Assembly (NCBI RefSeq): GCF_001642725.1
Contig: NZ_LSUQ01000001.1
Coordinates: 116,992-136,991 of the forward strand
Length of the DNA stretch: 20,000 nt
Source of the DNA: Ferroacidibacillus organovorans
GTDB lineage: Bacteria > Bacillota > Bacilli > Alicyclobacillales > SLC66
Direction: 5' to 3'
Below the pieces are notes generated by a model. The model was not told where the DNA came from. It was given only the letters and a program-made list of their open reading frames with translations, and did no database searches. A program made the position numbers and the translations under genes. The first letter of the stretch is position 1, and each line of letters begins with the position of its first letter. This document shows, in pieces, positions 5,985-18,521 of this stretch.

Positions 5985-6103
5985 GCATAGCCGAATCACT
6001 TGAAGAGAGTGTACGGAGGACCCATGTAGTTGGGGTGAACTTTGCATTGATGCAAAGCGGGACGACCTTCTCCCGAACCCGTCAGCTAACTCCGGAGGCG
6101 TGG
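5985..6103 (+). ncRNA. c-di-AMP (ydaO/yuaA) riboswitch
   Basis: Conserved blocks GCCGAATC..GTACGGAGGA..GGGGTGAA..GGGA..TCCCGAACCCGTCAGCTAACTCCGGAGGCG; CTTTGCAT/ATGCAAAG stem; lies upstream of a cell-wall enzyme, the typical context. Confidence 0.93.
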
Positions 6104-6114
6104 GAGGAAATCGT

Positions 6115-6912
6115 TTGACATACGAAATTTTTAAACGGTTGTCAGCTGCTACGCTGACAGTTGGTTCTTTTCTTATGTTTTTTGGTGGTGACGCAACCAG
6201 TATGGCGGCGACGCTTCCAGCGGCACCATACACTGTTAAGGCGGGGGATACGCCTCTTTCAATCGCTCACCTCACTGGCTTTAGTGTTTCTCGTTTTGAT
6301 TTGGTCAATCACCTCGCTGGTCCGAGTGCGCGTTTGATTCCAGGTGAAAAAGTGGCGCTCCCATTTTTGTATCGTGTGTCATCTGGCGATACACTCTCTT
6401 ATCTTGCGCAGCATTACGGCACGACGGTCGCGCGGATCATGGCATTGAACCACCTGCACAGCTCGTTGATTTACGCGGGGCAGACACTGCTTTTCGCGCG
6501 AGGAAGTGCCGCTGTTCAGCATGTTGCACATCCGCTCGTTTTTCGAGCGGCGAATGTCTCGTCCCATGTTGCACCTGCACCAACACCCGCAAAACAAGGA
6601 CTGGGGACGTTTTTGGCCAGCGCCTATGATCCGTCCGTCTCTTCGAATGGGCCGTGGGGTGCGGTTGACTATTTTGGACAACCCCTCAAGTTCGGGGATG
6701 TCGCGGTCGACCCGAGTGTCATACCACTTGGCTCAACGCTTTATATCAGCGGTTACTCAGATCCGGCGCTGCCGGCTGGTGGATTTTATGCAAAAGCGGT
6801 GGATACAGGCGGCGCAATCAAGGGAAAACGAATCGATGTGTTCTTGCCAACCTATACCGCTGCCATGAACTTTGGGTTGGAGAATGTCAGTGTCTCCATC
6901 GTTCGAAAGTAA
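6115..6912 (+). CDS. Secreted LysM-LysM-3D domain protein (YocH/Sps-like peptidoglycan lytic enzyme)
   Basis: Signal peptide, two LysM (YTVKAGDT, YRVSSGDTL), 3D domain (ASAY, VAVDPSVIPLGS, A.DTGGAIKGKRIDVF). TTG 6115 follows GGGAGG at 6102-6107. Confidence 0.9.
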   Translation: MTYEIFKRLSAATLTVGSFLMFFGGDATSMAATLPAAPYTVKAGDTPLSIAHLTGFSVSRFDLVNHLAGPSARLIPGEKVALPFLYRVSSGDTLSYLAQHYGTTVARIMALNHLHSSLIYAGQTLLFARGSAAVQHVAHPLVFRAANVSSHVAPAPTPAKQGLGTFLASAYDPSVSSNGPWGAVDYFGQPLKFGDVAVDPSVIPLGSTLYISGYSDPALPAGGFYAKAVDTGGAIKGKRIDVFLPTYTAAMNFGLENVSVSIVRK

Positions 6913-6933: not shown

Positions 6934-6979
6934 TTGAAACGCGCGTGCCCGCTCCGTTATACTGACTGAGTAAACGGAG
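6934..6979 (+). promoter_or_regulatory. Putative bcp promoter overlapping a hairpin that may terminate the LysM-3D gene
   Basis: TTGAAA, 18 nt, TATACT (6958-6963). Hairpin CTCCGTT-A-TACT/AGTA-AACGGAG followed by GTTGTTATT. Confidence 0.5.
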
Positions 6980-7008
6980 GTTGTTATTCCACAGTCGGGA
7001 GGTACGTT

Positions 7009-7461
7009 ATGCCAATCATGTCTGGACAAGCCCCTACGTTTCAACTCGCTGCGACTGGTGAGCGGAACGTTTCGCTTGAATCGTATGTGGGGAAAACCGT
7101 GGTTCTCTTTTTCTATCCAAAAGATGACACACCAGGCTGAACCACGGAAGCGACCGGTTTTCGCGATCAGTATGAGCTGTTCGTCGAAAAAGGGGTTGCC
7201 GTGCTCGGTGTGAGCACTGATTCGATCGCGTCTCACGAAAAGTTTGCCGCGAAATACCAATTGCCATTTCCATTGCTTTCCGATCCTGACGCAGCGATTT
7301 GTAAAGCCTATGAGGTGTATGTCGAAAAAAACATGTATGGTAAAAAGTACATGGGCATTGAACGCACCACATTTGTGATCGATGGGGAAGGTCAGATTGC
7401 GAGAGTCTATCCTAAAGTGAAAGTGGATGGACACGCAGAAAAGGTTCTTGCAGATCTATAA
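7009..7461 (+). CDS. bcp: BCP/PrxQ peroxiredoxin with in-frame TGA at the peroxidatic Cys (candidate selenoprotein)
   Basis: GGGAGGT RBS and ATG 7009: MPIMSGQAPTFQLAATGERNVSLESYVGKTVVLFFYPKDDTPG*TTEATGFRDQYELF..., continuing in frame into the track ORF 7201-7461 (LGVSTD, PLLSD, ERTTFVID). TGA at 7138-7140 is codon 44 of 150. Confidence 0.9.
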
Positions 7462-7469
7462 ATACGCTT

Positions 7470-7526
7470 AAAACCCCACATCTCGGGCCATGCTGATGAG
7501 GATGGCCTAGAGAAGGTGGGGTTTTT
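7470..7526 (+). terminator. Long hairpin terminator after bcp
   Basis: AAAACCCCAC/GTGGGGTTTT, TCTC/GAGA and GGGCCAT/ATGGCCT arms ending in a T run. Confidence 0.75.
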
Positions 7527-10610: not shown

Positions 10611-10687
10611 GCGTTATTGCCTCCTTTTTGATACGGTATGATCAGTTTTCCATTGAGGTGCAATTCTTAAAGACAGGATGGGTGAAA

Positions 10688-12448
10688 ATGCAGCGCGTCA
10701 TGCTCACGACACTCAATGCAAAGTATGTTCACTCGTCACTCGCGCTTCGCTACTTGCGTGCGGCGATTGAACAACAGTGCGATGTTGTCATGCGCGAGTT
10801 CACGATCCACGACCCTGTTGAACATGTTTTGGCAAAGATCTATGCAGTCAAACCAGACCTTCTGGGAATCAGTTGCTATATATGGAATATCACGGAGACG
10901 TTGCGTCTGATTCCTTTGGTGAAAAAAGTGCTCCCTGAAACGAAAATCGTTTTGGGAGGTCCAGAAGTGTCCTATGATTCCGTGGAGTTTATGGAACTTC
11001 ACAAAGGGATCGACGTGATTGTCCGCGGAGAGGGAGAGGTGACTCTCCAGAGGCTCCTGCAGTCGTTAGCGTGTGAAAGTTCATTTTCGGCGATTGAGGG
11101 TATTGTTTTTCGGACAAAAGATGGCATCGTCGATACAGGTGCCGCCCGGAAGGTGACATCACTCGATGATCTTCCCACCCCATATGCCAAGGATAGCCTG
11201 CACGAGCTTGATCAACGAATCGTATATTTTGAAGCGAGTCGCGGTTGTCCGTTTTCGTGTCAGTTTTGCCTTTCTTCAATTGAATCGGGCGTGCGCTACT
11301 TCTCGCTTGAGCGTGTCAAAGATGATCTTACACGCTTGGTGGAATACGGGGTGCGCCAGATTAAGTTTGTCGATCGTACGTTTAATCTTCGCAAGGATTA
11401 TGCATTAGAGATTTTTTCTCACGTCTTGTCTCTTTCGGGAGAGACGACGTTTCACTTTGAAATTACGGGAGATATACTAAAATCAGAAGTGGTGTCTTGG
11501 CTTATTGATCACGCGCCACCAGGAAAGTTTAGATTTGAAATTGGAGTGCAATCTACGAGTGATGAGACCAATGCAATCATCAAGCGTCGCCAAGATTTTG
11601 TGAAGTTATCGGAAACGGTATCTCGAATTCGCGATTCCGGTGTGATTCTTCAACATCTGGATCTGATTGCCGGTTTGCCAGAAGAAGACTACAATCGCTT
11701 TGCTCAAACCTTTAATGAGGTGTACGCGCTGCGCCCTGATGAGTTACAACTGGGTTTTTTAAAACTTCTGCGTGGAACGGGATTGCGAAATCGTGCGAAT
11801 CAATACGGATATGTATATATGGATACTGCACCGTATGAGATGTTGGCTAATGCTGTCATGCCGTATGGAGACGTCGTGCGTTTGAAGCGGTTAGAGGATA
11901 TTCTTGAAAAGTATTACAATTCAGGTCGATTTCCACGCTCCATTCCGTACCTATCAAACAAGTGTTTTGCGACACCGTTTGACTTTTATCAGCGCTTTGG
12001 TGATTTTTGGAGTCTTCGAGGGTATGAGCGAATTGGCCATCAAATGCACGATTTATATATTCGTCTCGAAGAATTTTTGCGAGAAGAAAACGTTGTGAAT
12101 GCAACTGCGTATGCGCTGATGCGCGCGGATTATCTCATGAGAGAAAAAATTCGCCCTAAACGCCTCTGGTGGAAGAGATATGTGGATGAAGTGACACTAT
12201 CAACGATGCGTGCGCTAGAACCACCCTTGGCAAAGGGAGAGACGATTGATGCGGTGCTCTTGAAACGCTGTATCGCTGATCGCGTACCTGCTGATGCGGC
12301 GCGTGAGCTAGGTTTGATGGTGGGGGATGTGCGCGGTGAGCTGACGATCATCTATTGCTATCCAAAAGGACTAGGACATCCGACCGTGCATGTGTCGATG
12401 TCAGTAAGTGAAATGGCCGACGATTTTCAGTTGCAGTTTCCATCTTAA
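10688..12448 (+). CDS. B12-binding-domain radical SAM protein (probable DUF4080 C-terminus)
   Basis: TLNAKYVHSSLALRYL, SCYIWN, LGGPEVS, GEGE, RGCPFSCQFC (CxxxCxxC), KFVDRTFN, DLIAGLP. ATG 10688 preferred. Confidence 0.88.
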   Translation: MQRVMLTTLNAKYVHSSLALRYLRAAIEQQCDVVMREFTIHDPVEHVLAKIYAVKPDLLGISCYIWNITETLRLIPLVKKVLPETKIVLGGPEVSYDSVEFMELHKGIDVIVRGEGEVTLQRLLQSLACESSFSAIEGIVFRTKDGIVDTGAARKVTSLDDLPTPYAKDSLHELDQRIVYFEASRGCPFSCQFCLSSIESGVRYFSLERVKDDLTRLVEYGVRQIKFVDRTFNLRKDYALEIFSHVLSLSGETTFHFEITGDILKSEVVSWLIDHAPPGKFRFEIGVQSTSDETNAIIKRRQDFVKLSETVSRIRDSGVILQHLDLIAGLPEEDYNRFAQTFNEVYALRPDELQLGFLKLLRGTGLRNRANQYGYVYMDTAPYEMLANAVMPYGDVVRLKRLEDILEKYYNSGRFPRSIPYLSNKCFATPFDFYQRFGDFWSLRGYERIGHQMHDLYIRLEEFLREENVVNATAYALMRADYLMREKIRPKRLWWKRYVDEVTLSTMRALEPPLAKGETIDAVLLKRCIADRVPADAARELGLMVGDVRGELTIIYCYPKGLGHPTVHVSMSVSEMADDFQLQFPS

Positions 12449-13516: not shown

Positions 13517-13999
13517 TTAAAGAAAACGCGTCTCAATTCCGCGTATCGTGAACAAAAGCAATCCTAAAAGTGTTAGGATCATAGTAAAGACGATGAGCCC
13601 CATTGAGATTCCATGGTAGAAGAAAAATTGTTTCAACACGGGAGTCATAGGGCCTGCGAAGTTAGGTATTCTCAATCTTGCCGCGTTCATCGCCGGGAGA
13701 AGAACCATGTCGCTAAACGCCAAAAAAAGTGTAGATAGCCACGCGCTGCTGATAAAGATTCGCCGCGAGATGTAGCGATGCGATGGCCAAGGTATGAACC
13801 CAGTGCATACGCTCGCAATCAGCGAAGAGATTCCTGTGAAGCGATAAAACGATGGAAACAAATGTGCGAGAACGGTTCCCGCTGACTGGAGCGTAAGGCT
13901 GGCAAAGATGGTCTCAGCGACGATGAGAGAAAAGAATACCATCGCGCCGAGTGACAAAGCGGTTGCTAAAGAATAAATTGATCTTGAAGTCGATTGCAC
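13517..13999 (-). CDS. Four-TM membrane protein, DUF4149/TMEM205-like
   Basis: G..FF...VA..IF..L....AG......FP..Y and F...HG.S patterns; AAGGGG RBS before GTG 13999. Confidence 0.7.
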   Translation of the reverse strand: MQSTSRSIYSLATALSLGAMVFFSLIVAETIFASLTLQSAGTVLAHLFPSFYRFTGISSLIASVCTGFIPWPSHRYISRRIFISSAWLSTLFLAFSDMVLLPAMNAARLRIPNFAGPMTPVLKQFFFYHGISMGLIVFTMILTLLGLLLFTIRGIETRFL

Positions 14000-14912: not shown

Positions 14913-15779
14913 TTAAGCAAACTCCCTCATCAGCTCATCAAACATACTCTGATCCATCTCGAGGTTTGAGTTGAGATAGGCTTCTTGCGGATAATTTTGT
15001 ACGAGATCTTCAAAGACCGGCTTTTTCTCATCCTTGAAAATAAGCCCTGTGCACAATCCATCCGTTTCCATGACTTTAGCGATTGCCGACGCGCGATCGG
15101 TTGGATTGTAATCGGGAAATTGATCAAGTGAAACCGTGTGTTCCTTGAACCACTCGTACGTGTTTACTTTGTTATAGGTGACACAAGGGCTGAACACGTT
15201 GATTAAGCTGAACCCTTTATGCTCAATTCCACCCTGAATCAATTCTGTCAGTTGATTGACATCTGATGAGAATCCTTGGGCTAGATATGTGATGCCTGCA
15301 GACAATGCAATCTGTAAAGGACTGATCGCATTCTCGATATTTCCCGCGGGTGTGGTTTTCGCCTTGAATCCAAATGCTGATGTGGGGGAGTGCTGTCCTT
15401 TTGTTAGACCGTAGATTTGATTGTCCATTACGACATACGTGATGTCCATGTTGCGTCGTACGGCGTGCATAAAATGTCCGAGTCCAATGCCGAATCCGTC
15501 GCCGTCTCCGCCAGATGCGAGTACAGTCAGGTTGCGATTGGCAAGCTTTACACCCTGCGCGATGGGGAGAGAGCGTCCATGCACACCGTGAAATCCATAC
15601 ACATTCAAATAACCGCAAATTCGTCCAGAACATCCGATCCCTGAAATGAGCGCAACATTTTCAGGCTCAAGGTTTAAGTTTCCGAGAGCACGCTGCATGG
15701 AGGCCTGAACGGCAAAGTCGCCACAACCTGGGCACCAGTTAGGACGTACATTGTTACGAAACTCTTTTACCGTTGCCAT
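14913..15779 (-). CDS. 2-oxoacid:ferredoxin oxidoreductase beta subunit
   Basis: WCPGCG, SGIGCS, HGR, GGDGD (TPP-binding), NQIYGLTKGQ.SPT, SPCVTYN. Confidence 0.93.
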   Translation of the reverse strand: MATVKEFRNNVRPNWCPGCGDFAVQASMQRALGNLNLEPENVALISGIGCSGRICGYLNVYGFHGVHGRSLPIAQGVKLANRNLTVLASGGDGDGFGIGLGHFMHAVRRNMDITYVVMDNQIYGLTKGQHSPTSAFGFKAKTTPAGNIENAISPLQIALSAGITYLAQGFSSDVNQLTELIQGGIEHKGFSLINVFSPCVTYNKVNTYEWFKEHTVSLDQFPDYNPTDRASAIAKVMETDGLCTGLIFKDEKKPVFEDLVQNYPQEAYLNSNLEMDQSMFDELMREFA

Positions 15780-17521
15780 GCAATCATCGATCCTTTCACG
15801 TGAGCCTCAATTTCTTTAGGCAAAAAGGGTGTGCCGTCAAACTTCAGATGGCTTGAAAATTCGCTGTGATTCAATCCAAAGAAACGCATGAGATGATAGA
15901 GTTGGCCTGTCGCGTTTGACTCAAAAACGATGACTTGTTTCACGCCATCCATGTACGCTTGAAGAGAAGCTACTGGAAATGGAGAGATGACGTGAACATG
16001 AGCGTGACCGACGCGCGCGCCCTGTTCGCGCAGTCGCGTAGCAGCCTCGCTGATCGGCCCGATTGAAGATCCAACACCAACCAAAAGGATGTCTGGGTTT
16101 TGATCCCCTTCGTAGGTTGTGCTGTTAGGCAATTCAACGCCCTCAAATTTGTTCAGACGCTTTTTCATCATTTGCACGTGGTTGGATGTTCCTTCATCAG
16201 GGCGCCCTACCTCGTTGTGCTCAACGCCCGTGACGTGATGAATGCCGCCTTTTTGACCAGGGAATACACGGGGAGACACACCGTTTTTTGTTCGCTCAAA
16301 GCGCTTGAAAAGTTGGCCTGGCTCCATCTGTGCCAATTGCTCTTGCGTTGCGAGCAAACCGCGATCGATCTTTACTTGATCGTGCGCGAATTTTTCTACT
16401 GATTGACTGGCGAGCGAAAGTGCCAGGTCTGTCATGATGATGACAGGGCACTGATAAACCTCTGCGTAATTGAACGCTTCAACAGCCGCATAAAAACATT
16501 CTTCAGCCGTCGCTGGGGTCAGCACAACCTTCTGAATTTCACCGTGCGTCCCAAACATGGCTTGATACATATCGCTTTGCTCGTGTTTTGTAGGAAGTCC
16601 GGTGCTAGGTCCGCCGCGCTGCGTGTCAACGATGACGACAGGCTGTTCGGTCATTCCGGCGAGACCCAATGCCTCCATCATGAGCGAAAAACCTGGCCCT
16701 GACGTCGCTGTAAGCGTTCGTGCGCCCGCATAGGAGGCCCCGATCGTCATATTGAGTGCCGCGATTTCGTCTTCTGTTTGAACAACGACACCGCCGACTT
16801 TAGGAAGCTTTTTAATCAGATATTCCATCACGTCAGAAGCCGGAGTGATCGGGTATGCGGGCATGACGCGTACGCCGGCTGCAAGTGCTCCGAATGCGAT
16901 TGCGTCATTTCCAATCATGAGCAGGTGTTCGTCCGGGGTTGGTGACGCGAGCGCAAAGTCAGGAAAAGCTACATTCTGAGCCTTCATTGCGTCGTAACCG
17001 GCCATGACAGCCGCTTGGTTTTGCTCAACAATTTTCTGGCTTTTGCGTCCAAAAAGGCTTTGAAGAACGGGTGTGCAAAAATCAGGCGAGAGCCCCATCA
17101 CAAACGCGGTTGCACCGAGAGCCACCATATTTTTCATAATGGCAGCACCGTTTTGTTCGGCGATTTTCGTAAAGGGGATGGCAAATAGCAAGACATCGCT
17201 CGCCGTATTTTCTGGGAGAACGGGATTGAATTTTGCGTCACCAATCACAACGCCGCCTATGCGAAGCTCATGTGCGTTCAGGTCAATGGTTTCCTGGTCG
17301 AACGCGACGAGGATATCGAGTTGGTCGGCACTTGAATGCTTCTGTTTGGTGCTTACGCGGACCTTGTCGTTCGTATGGCCACCTTTAATTCGGGAAGAAA
17401 AATGTCTGTAAGAGTAAATATAGTACCCCATGCGATTGAGCGAGGTGGCAAACGTTTTGCCTGTGGAATCGATCCCTTCACCTTGCTGACCGCCAACTTT
17501 CCACGATAGTTCTTGCAACAT
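15767..17521 (-). CDS. 2-oxoacid:acceptor oxidoreductase alpha subunit
   Basis: WKVGGQQGEG, YPITP, EDEIAA, TSGPG, QRGGPSTGLPT. AAAGGAG RBS; start is ATG 17521 or 17530, not 17677. Confidence 0.93.
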   Translation of the reverse strand: MLQELSWKVGGQQGEGIDSTGKTFATSLNRMGYYIYSYRHFSSRIKGGHTNDKVRVSTKQKHSSADQLDILVAFDQETIDLNAHELRIGGVVIGDAKFNPVLPENTASDVLLFAIPFTKIAEQNGAAIMKNMVALGATAFVMGLSPDFCTPVLQSLFGRKSQKIVEQNQAAVMAGYDAMKAQNVAFPDFALASPTPDEHLLMIGNDAIAFGALAAGVRVMPAYPITPASDVMEYLIKKLPKVGGVVVQTEDEIAALNMTIGASYAGARTLTATSGPGFSLMMEALGLAGMTEQPVVIVDTQRGGPSTGLPTKHEQSDMYQAMFGTHGEIQKVVLTPATAEECFYAAVEAFNYAEVYQCPVIIMTDLALSLASQSVEKFAHDQVKIDRGLLATQEQLAQMEPGQLFKRFERTKNGVSPRVFPGQKGGIHHVTGVEHNEVGRPDEGTSNHVQMMKKRLNKFEGVELPNSTTYEGDQNPDILLVGVGSSIGPISEAATRLREQGARVGHAHVHVISPFPVASLQAYMDGVKQVIVFESNATGQLYHLMRFFGLNHSEFSSHLKFDGTPFLPKEIEAHVKGSMIAWQR

Positions 17522-17561
17522 GTGCGTCATGCACTCCTTTCGCGCCCGTGTAGCGCGCGTA

Positions 17562-18521
17562 TCAATGTCGAAACGTGTCAGCGAGCGCTGCGCGCAGCAG
17601 ATTGACGGATGCGACATCAGGTTGAAACACAAACTCAATGACGTGCTGTTTGCGTTTGCAATAGGCCTCAATCTCACGCCGTCGTCCAGGCGATACGATC
17701 AAGGCATCCTGTGAACCGACAAACGCCCTTACCCGTTCTGCATCCGCATCCGTATGAACGCTGACGTGCAACTCTTCTAGACGAGCCTGACGGAGCGCGT
17801 TGAGCACCTTACCCGCGAAATTTTCGCTTTTACAGATAAGGCCGACGCGCTTTTCCTGAGGAATGCGTGCAACTTTTACGATCGTCTCAAGCTCAGGGTC
17901 AAGTGACACAGCGATAACTTGCTGAGAGGATCCGATGAGTTGTTGCACTTCGTCAAGATGGAAAAATGTCGTGATCACAAGTCGGGCGCGTTCGAGAATC
18001 GAGCGCTCTTTTTGAGATGCATCTTTCAACTCTTCCAACAAGAGTGGCGTGATGTGAATACCGCCAAACTCGAGTTTGCGTGAGAAGTATTCGACTTGTT
18101 CACGGTTGCATTCAATAAAGACGACTTGAACATCATGCAAAAGCGCAGCCTTTTGCTGCGCGCGCTTTGTTGCGATGTCGACAAATTCCTCAATTGAAAA
18201 GCCGAGTTGAAGTCCCTCTTCTAATGCGACGTCAATGACTTTCGACAACAAATCGCGTCGATTTTCAAAACGCACTTTGTCATCGCGATCGCAAATAAAA
18301 GTACCGCGCCCTTGAATCGATACGAGGATTCCGTCAGCCTCCAGGTCTTGGTATGCCTGGCTGACCGTATTGCGACTTACTCCGAGGCGTTCTGACAACT
18401 CGCGTTCGGTTGGCAGTTGTTCGCCTGGTTTGCGGACGCCAGATTGAACATCCGATAAAATGTTATTCTTGACTTGGACATAGAGCGGGATGCCGTTTTT
18501 CCGAATCAATGCTGTGTCCAC
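17562..18521 (-). CDS. GntR-family transcriptional regulator with a long C-terminal effector region
   Basis: PLY.QVK, PGEQLPTERELSERLGVSRNTV..AY..LE..G....QGRGTF; AGGAGG RBS, GTG start. Confidence 0.9.
   Translation of the reverse strand: MDTALIRKNGIPLYVQVKNNILSDVQSGVRKPGEQLPTERELSERLGVSRNTVSQAYQDLEADGILVSIQGRGTFICDRDDKVRFENRRDLLSKVIDVALEEGLQLGFSIEEFVDIATKRAQQKAALLHDVQVVFIECNREQVEYFSRKLEFGGIHITPLLLEELKDASQKERSILERARLVITTFFHLDEVQQLIGSSQQVIAVSLDPELETIVKVARIPQEKRVGLICKSENFAGKVLNALRQARLEELHVSVHTDADAERVRAFVGSQDALIVSPGRRREIEAYCKRKQHVIEFVFQPDVASVNLLRAALADTFRH

Follow-up and report, generated by a model that had tools for sequence, protein, structure and literature searches.

A single TGA codon interrupts an otherwise intact peroxiredoxin gene of the bcp/prxQ type (7009..7461, + strand) at exactly the position where the peroxidatic cysteine is expected, and the locus therefore raises the question of whether this codon is read through and, if so, as what. 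The original prediction, made from the letters of the window (the whole stretch of 20,000 nucleotides analyzed here), was that the UGA is translated as selenocysteine (Sec), or else as Cys or Trp by another route, and that a genome devoid of selA, selB, selC and selD would point to a non-canonical recoding mechanism. Taken together, the orthologues of the gene, the selection acting on it and the decoding genes of its genome indicate that it very probably encodes a canonical selenoprotein, in which Sec would be inserted at peroxidatic residue 44 by the ordinary SelA/SelB/SelC/SelD pathway.

The bcp/prxQ reading frame and its predicted product

The frame opens with ATG at 7009 and closes with TAA at 7459-7461, spanning 150 codons plus the stop. 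Its sole in-frame stop is the TGA at 7138-7140 (+), codon 44, which is predicted to be read as Sec and which in the read-through translation lies in the context FYPKDDTPG-U-TTEATGF. Gene calling with translation table 11 yields two pieces, a stub of 43 codons and an ORF of 86 codons starting from GTG 7201, because the TGA at codon 44 interrupts the frame. As had been anticipated for this gene, the two fragments are also its public face, with the 43-aa N-terminal and 86-aa C-terminal pieces filed in public collections as separate predicted proteins. The 120 best homologues listed reach at most 66% identity, and none of them is a near-identical full-length protein. Among the matches listed from public protein collections, the closest named homologues belong to Kyrpidia and to Alicyclobacillaceae metagenome bins, and a search of genome contigs for related loci returned only uninterrupted Cys-form relatives, distributed over many phyla and including one Alicyclobacillus record. 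The lineage thus probably lies within the order of these organisms or close to it.

Three flanking signals had been proposed for the gene. The ribosome-binding site is present as a Shine-Dalgarno-like GGGAGG (6997..7002, +), read from the sequence, which precedes the ATG at 7009 by 5 nt. The promoter-like site can be located as a sigma-70-like candidate, TTGAAA-18-TATACT (6934..6963, +), that matches the consensus at 10 of 12 positions; it is weak evidence, however, because two such sites occur in the region where 0.9 would be expected. The terminator was not called by a simple scan of the region 3′ of the gene, but it is plausible because direct folding shows a long terminator-like hairpin ending in TTTTT (7470..7526, +; -40.3 kcal/mol, z -7.58).

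Directly upstream of the bcp gene is a unit composed of a c-di-AMP riboswitch (RF00379; 5979-6115, +; 86.9 bits, gathering score 38) and, behind it, an ORF (6100-6912, +) encoding a LysM plus 3D-domain protein, likely a cell-wall hydrolase. The bcp gene appears to form a separate unit. Further along the window are a gene for a B12-binding radical SAM protein with a DUF4080 domain (10628-12448, +) and a pair of genes for 2-oxoacid:ferredoxin oxidoreductase subunits (14913-17677, - strand; POR_N/POR and TPP_enzyme_C/PFO_beta_C), the latter accompanied by a GntR-family regulator (17562-18521).

Judged by its sequence, the gene product is an AhpC/TSA thioredoxin-fold peroxiredoxin of the BCP/PrxQ type. 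Profile scores of the read-through protein were obtained with C standing in for U at the TGA. Scored in this way, residues 7-132 match positions 4-123 of the 124 positions of the Pfam AhpC-TSA profile (PF00578) with an E value of 1e-41, and the protein lies barely above the cut-off of the NCBIfam BCP equivalog NF006960 (thioredoxin-dependent thiol peroxidase; 141.4 bits, cut-off 140). It is below the cut-off of NF053650 (PrxQ, Deinococcus type; 165.1 vs 260) and far below that of the PrxU selenoperoxiredoxin equivalog NF040737 (64.4 bits, cut-off 270). Solved BCP structures (5iiz, 3gkk and 5enu) align with it end to end, over residues 6-149, with E values from 2.5e-42 to 7.8e-42. The peroxidatic motif PxxxTxxC/U, as given in PMC13188914, is present as P37-KDD-T41-PG-U44. 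The claim of a 150-codon bcp gene whose only interruption is a TGA at the peroxidatic Cys position is thus borne out.

Distribution of the TGA codon and the decoding machinery

Orthologues were sought in 41 genomes belonging to two families (f1 and f2) of one order, namely the source genome (G000; 3.03 Mb in 98 contigs, 96.8% complete) and 40 relatives. An orthologue was found in 39 of them. The peroxidatic codon is TGA in 15, the source genome included, and TGC or TGT in the other 24; TGA at this codon is accordingly conserved in 14 further genomes, spanning nine genera, and is aligned with Cys elsewhere, the pattern that a comparison with relatives had been expected to reveal if the codon is functional. 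The form of the gene follows the presence of selA, which was detected in all 15 TGA-form genomes as opposed to 5 of the 24 with the Cys form. Within family f2 (22 genomes), the four selA-positive genomes are exactly the four with the TGA form. One of the selA-negative Cys-form genomes (G018) is only 60% complete.

A tree of the 39 orthologues, computed with the catalytic column masked, needs five changes between Sec and Cys (bootstrap range 4-6), of which at least two are forced by well-supported branches. The TGA form may also extend beyond these genomes. In a class-wide sample of 301 genomes, at least 12 single-TGA matches occur, counted among the 150 matches listed with 108 further ones beyond them, and five of these lie outside the order, the latter being counted by the single TGA alone, whatever its position.

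The search for Sec genes in the source genome, which had been put forward as a check, returned selA, selB, selD and tRNA-Sec, all above curated cut-offs. The scores are 567.4 bits for selA (cut-off 268), 372.5 bits for selB (cut-off 242, with model positions 2-577 of 581 covered), 387.9 bits for selD (cut-off 125) and 63.3 bits for tRNA-Sec (Rfam RF01852, gathering score 47). The profile matches to selA and selD are adjacent on contig C34 (7351-8721 and 8759-9679, respectively), selD lying directly downstream, while selB is found on contig C4 and tRNA-Sec on contig C21. With selA, selB, selC and selD all present, the non-canonical route that had been suggested in the event of their absence is excluded, and the bcp TGA reveals no new recoding mechanism.

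The genome appears to use the Sec trait at other loci as well, which favors the canonical reading, since several other frames have a single TGA of their own. The selD gene contains a single in-frame TGA, at nt 8789 of contig C34 in the motif SGUGCK, so that SelD is itself a selenoprotein candidate. On contig C93, a TGA at nt 1334 (L054) falls at the peroxidatic position of an AhpC/TSA-like frame, in AFYPLDWTPVU (TxxU); this frame is probably a second Sec-peroxiredoxin, its predicted protein being 39% identical to the bcp product. On contig C53, a TGA at nt 13791 (L057) lies in a Prx-like frame with the sequence GTWUPNC (UxxC), which matches the motif of the known "Prx-like thiol:disulfide oxidoreductase" selenoproteins.

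One explanation that competes with Sec insertion is that UGA-44 is read as Trp or Cys by a near-cognate tRNA, a suppressor tRNA or a reassigned code. Low-level read-through of UGA by tRNA-Trp is known in bacteria, and the hairpin described below could in principle stimulate read-through of this kind. Even so, we consider this explanation very improbable. According to aragorn, tRNA-Sec is the only tRNA of the source genome with a UCA anticodon, and the anticodon of its tRNA-Trp is CCA. The code itself does not appear to be reassigned, because TGA is the commonest stop, closing 705 of the 1466 open frames that are at least 300 codons long, and because the RF2 gene prfB is present (519 bits). Furthermore, the TGA forms are confined to genomes that possess selA, and a Trp at the peroxidatic position would make a dead enzyme, which is at odds with the strong purifying selection past the TGA (see below). 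The suggestion that Cys or Trp is inserted in some other way therefore finds no support, and Sec insertion by the ordinary pathway is the reading carried forward here.

Selection around the TGA and a candidate SECIS hairpin

Selection was computed for the source genome paired with a congener (G001). The 104 codons after the UGA show 40 synonymous and 7 non-synonymous differences (omega 0.028), and the 43 codons before it have an omega of 0.148; the segment that a stop would leave untranslated carries the stronger constraint. The reality of the TGA was assessed in Logan contigs that span the whole 901-base stretch; they come from the probable source sample and, in addition, from three other studies. 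None of the sequencing runs listed as containing the stretch is an RNA run. The contigs of the three other studies (X5, X6, with a word depth of 253, and X7; mine-drainage, unspecified and sediment metagenomes) share six differences from the window, none of them at 7138-7140, and those that fall within the gene, at 7032 and 7230, are both third-position synonymous. Since the TGA is intact in contigs (rather than reads) of three other studies, assembly error is excluded.

These results bear on the possibility that the gene is a Cys-type BCP in which a nonsense mutation of recent date, or a mistake in sequencing or assembly, has left only a 43-residue stub to be made. Such a history would account for the two fragments given by table-11 calling and filed publicly as separate proteins. 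It is nevertheless most unlikely, given a TGA shared at the same codon by other genera and retained in independent contigs, purifying selection that continues downstream of it, and a genome in which a second BCP orthologue was not found, the next matches being 33-39% identical. Hardly more credible is the idea that there are two functional units, the 43-residue peptide and, after a restart at the in-frame GTG 7201 that opens the 86-codon ORF, a C-terminal protein, as the 20 codons from the TGA to 7201 are under purifying selection and their protein sequence is conserved across all orthologues, the 86-residue piece is without the active site, and a thioredoxin fold that aligns whole-length with solved BCP structures would be split. 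In favor of translation of the UGA as Sec, as originally predicted, the pairing of TGA with Cys, the purifying selection, the Sec machinery and the independent assemblies all agree.

A candidate bacterial SECIS hairpin, to which SelB would bind, is found within the coding sequence at 7150..7199 (+; MFE -22.7 kcal/mol, z -2.47). It begins 12 nt past the U of the UGA, and its 4-nt apical loop, AUGA, lies 31 nt past the UGA. The register is the same in each of the 15 TGA forms, all of which fold a hairpin here. An RNAalifold consensus contains nine pairs in the TGA forms, four of them with compensatory changes, as compared with no pairs in the 24 Cys forms. This nine-pair core, which was derived from the very sequences it was tested on, is paired in 86.5% of cells in the TGA forms versus 60.6% on the Cys alignment, and in 29-51% of cells when the partners are slid by one to three columns. 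MFE z averages -3.0 among the TGA forms and -0.5 among the Cys forms, a contrast that is overstated by Mann-Whitney p values because the genomes are kin. Synonymous divergence is consistent with such an element: between G000 and G001, dS rises from 0.154 in the first 20 codons past the UGA to 1.684 over the 84 that follow, and two further genome pairs differ in the same direction. A drop of this kind is predicted by an RNA constraint overlaid on the coding sequence.

The bSECIS model set out in PMC13188914 specifies a UGA-to-loop distance of 16-37 nt, an upper stem of 4-16 bp, a 3-9 nt loop and an MFE of -7.5 kcal/mol or lower; it also asks for G at position one or two of the apical loop, and the same source states that some bSECIS elements fail the model. 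The hairpin of the source genome is within the published limits for loop size, UGA-to-loop distance and MFE, and in its MFE loop, AUGA, the G is third rather than first or second. Only a fold that costs about 10 kcal/mol relative to the MFE fold (-15.1 vs -25.5 kcal/mol) satisfies the four published constraints together. As implemented in our own script, the model is passed by 10 of the 15 TGA forms and by 19 of the 24 Cys forms, and it was dropped as evidence. As the model does not discriminate between the two forms, the SECIS call is based on the comparative evidence. At gathering thresholds, Rfam places no RNA family at the UGA; its only match in the window is the c-di-AMP riboswitch, which is located elsewhere.

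One Cys form also folds strongly. In G018 (L064:639-704), a hairpin in the SECIS register has a z of -5.0 and an MFE of -21.7 kcal/mol, and it may be a fossil SECIS left by a change from Sec to Cys. A selA gene was not found in this genome, at the 60% completeness noted above.

Predicted catalysis and relation to known selenoproteins

In the proposed pathway, SelA would turn serylated tRNA-Sec into Sec-tRNA-Sec with selenophosphate supplied by SelD, and SelB, bound to the hairpin at 7150-7199, would bring the charged tRNA to the ribosome at UGA-44. The selenolate of Sec44 would then attack the peroxide and become a selenenic acid. Because Cys is absent from both positions where BCPs carry a resolving Cys, the oxidized Sec is most likely resolved by a thiol from outside the protein, for instance that of thioredoxin, in a cycle of the "1-Cys type." What we infer for this enzyme is that Sec is inserted and that SelB binds the hairpin, along with the identity of its substrate, a peroxide, and of its reductant.

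The first of these positions is five residues past Sec44, where, as originally pointed out, Thr (Thr49) replaces the usual resolving Cys. At the second, an Ala stands opposite the Cys in the SHDNFCAKQ segment of chain 5iox_A, a Cys that we take to be the resolving one of that enzyme. 2-Cys BCPs typically have their resolving Cys either at +5 or within the helix that follows; this is not a requirement for membership, and 1-Cys BCPs exist. The +5 Cys is absent from all family-f1 orthologues, Sec and Cys forms alike, and is present in most family-f2 forms. The Sec form of G032 (L059:612-677) is the only TGA form with a Cys five residues past Sec (UTKEAC); there an intramolecular selenenylsulfide could form, unlike in the family-f1 forms. 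Another cysteine, Cys98 (window 7300-7302, in AICKAY), lies 54 residues past Sec and is kept in 36 of the 39 orthologues as well as in the aligned solved BCPs. Its equivalent in E. coli BCP is presumably not catalytic.

Peroxiredoxins with Sec are already known, and the bcp/prxQ gene described here adds to that family. Peroxiredoxins with a TxxU motif (PF00578) are an established bacterial selenoprotein family (PMC13188914, PMC1794560); PMC13188914 counts them among the experimentally supported prokaryotic selenoproteins, citing Sohling et al. (2001) for the founding member, the peroxiredoxin of Eubacterium acidaminophilum, and Table 1 of PMC1794560 has 12 bacterial Sec-peroxiredoxins with five inferred Cys-to-Sec events. 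The gene product resembles this family in its AhpC/TSA fold, in the placement of Sec at the peroxidatic position of PxxxTxxU, in its predicted decoding by SelA, SelB, SelC and SelD, in having a SECIS element (here a candidate) within the coding sequence, and in the sporadic exchange of Sec and Cys among close relatives. It differs from the founding PrxU in falling within the BCP/PrxQ subfamily, as the NF040737 score indicates.

With the Cys-type BCP/PrxQ enzymes (5iiz, 3gkk and 5enu), the protein shares the FYPKD-TPG-C-TxE motif and a conserved GIER(S/T)TF segment. It departs from them in having Sec for the peroxidatic Cys, Thr49 at +5, and Ala opposite the 5iox_A Cys. The Prx-like thiol:disulfide oxidoreductase selenoproteins have the same Pfam domain and likewise carry Sec in a redox motif, but this motif is UxxC instead of the TxxU of the bcp product; they represent another subfamily and, by motif, are not peroxidases. 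Among the papers listed in our literature search, none names a Sec-containing BCP/PrxQ. Surveys pool the subfamilies as "Prx," and their supplementary tables may list some.

The main value of the finding is a correction to annotation, in that an antioxidant enzyme is publicly filed as two meaningless fragments. The same mis-filing probably affects the 14 TGA-form orthologues and the other selenoprotein candidates of the source genome. In this clade, a single enzyme that is small and well understood occurs in closely related Sec and Cys forms whose distribution follows selA, and such Sec/Cys pairs are useful for comparing catalysis and for training selenoprotein finders. A broader reading, for and against which we see an even balance, is that BCP/PrxQ in this lineage has switched several times between Cys and Sec in step with the Sec machinery, and that the forms of family f1, which lack a resolving Cys, are "1-Sec" enzymes. 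If this is true, and if the lineage shares the aerobic, acid-loving habit suggested by its closest named relatives, these genes would constitute a natural matched series of Sec and Cys enzymes, with which one could ask what selenium buys a peroxiredoxin outside anaerobes.
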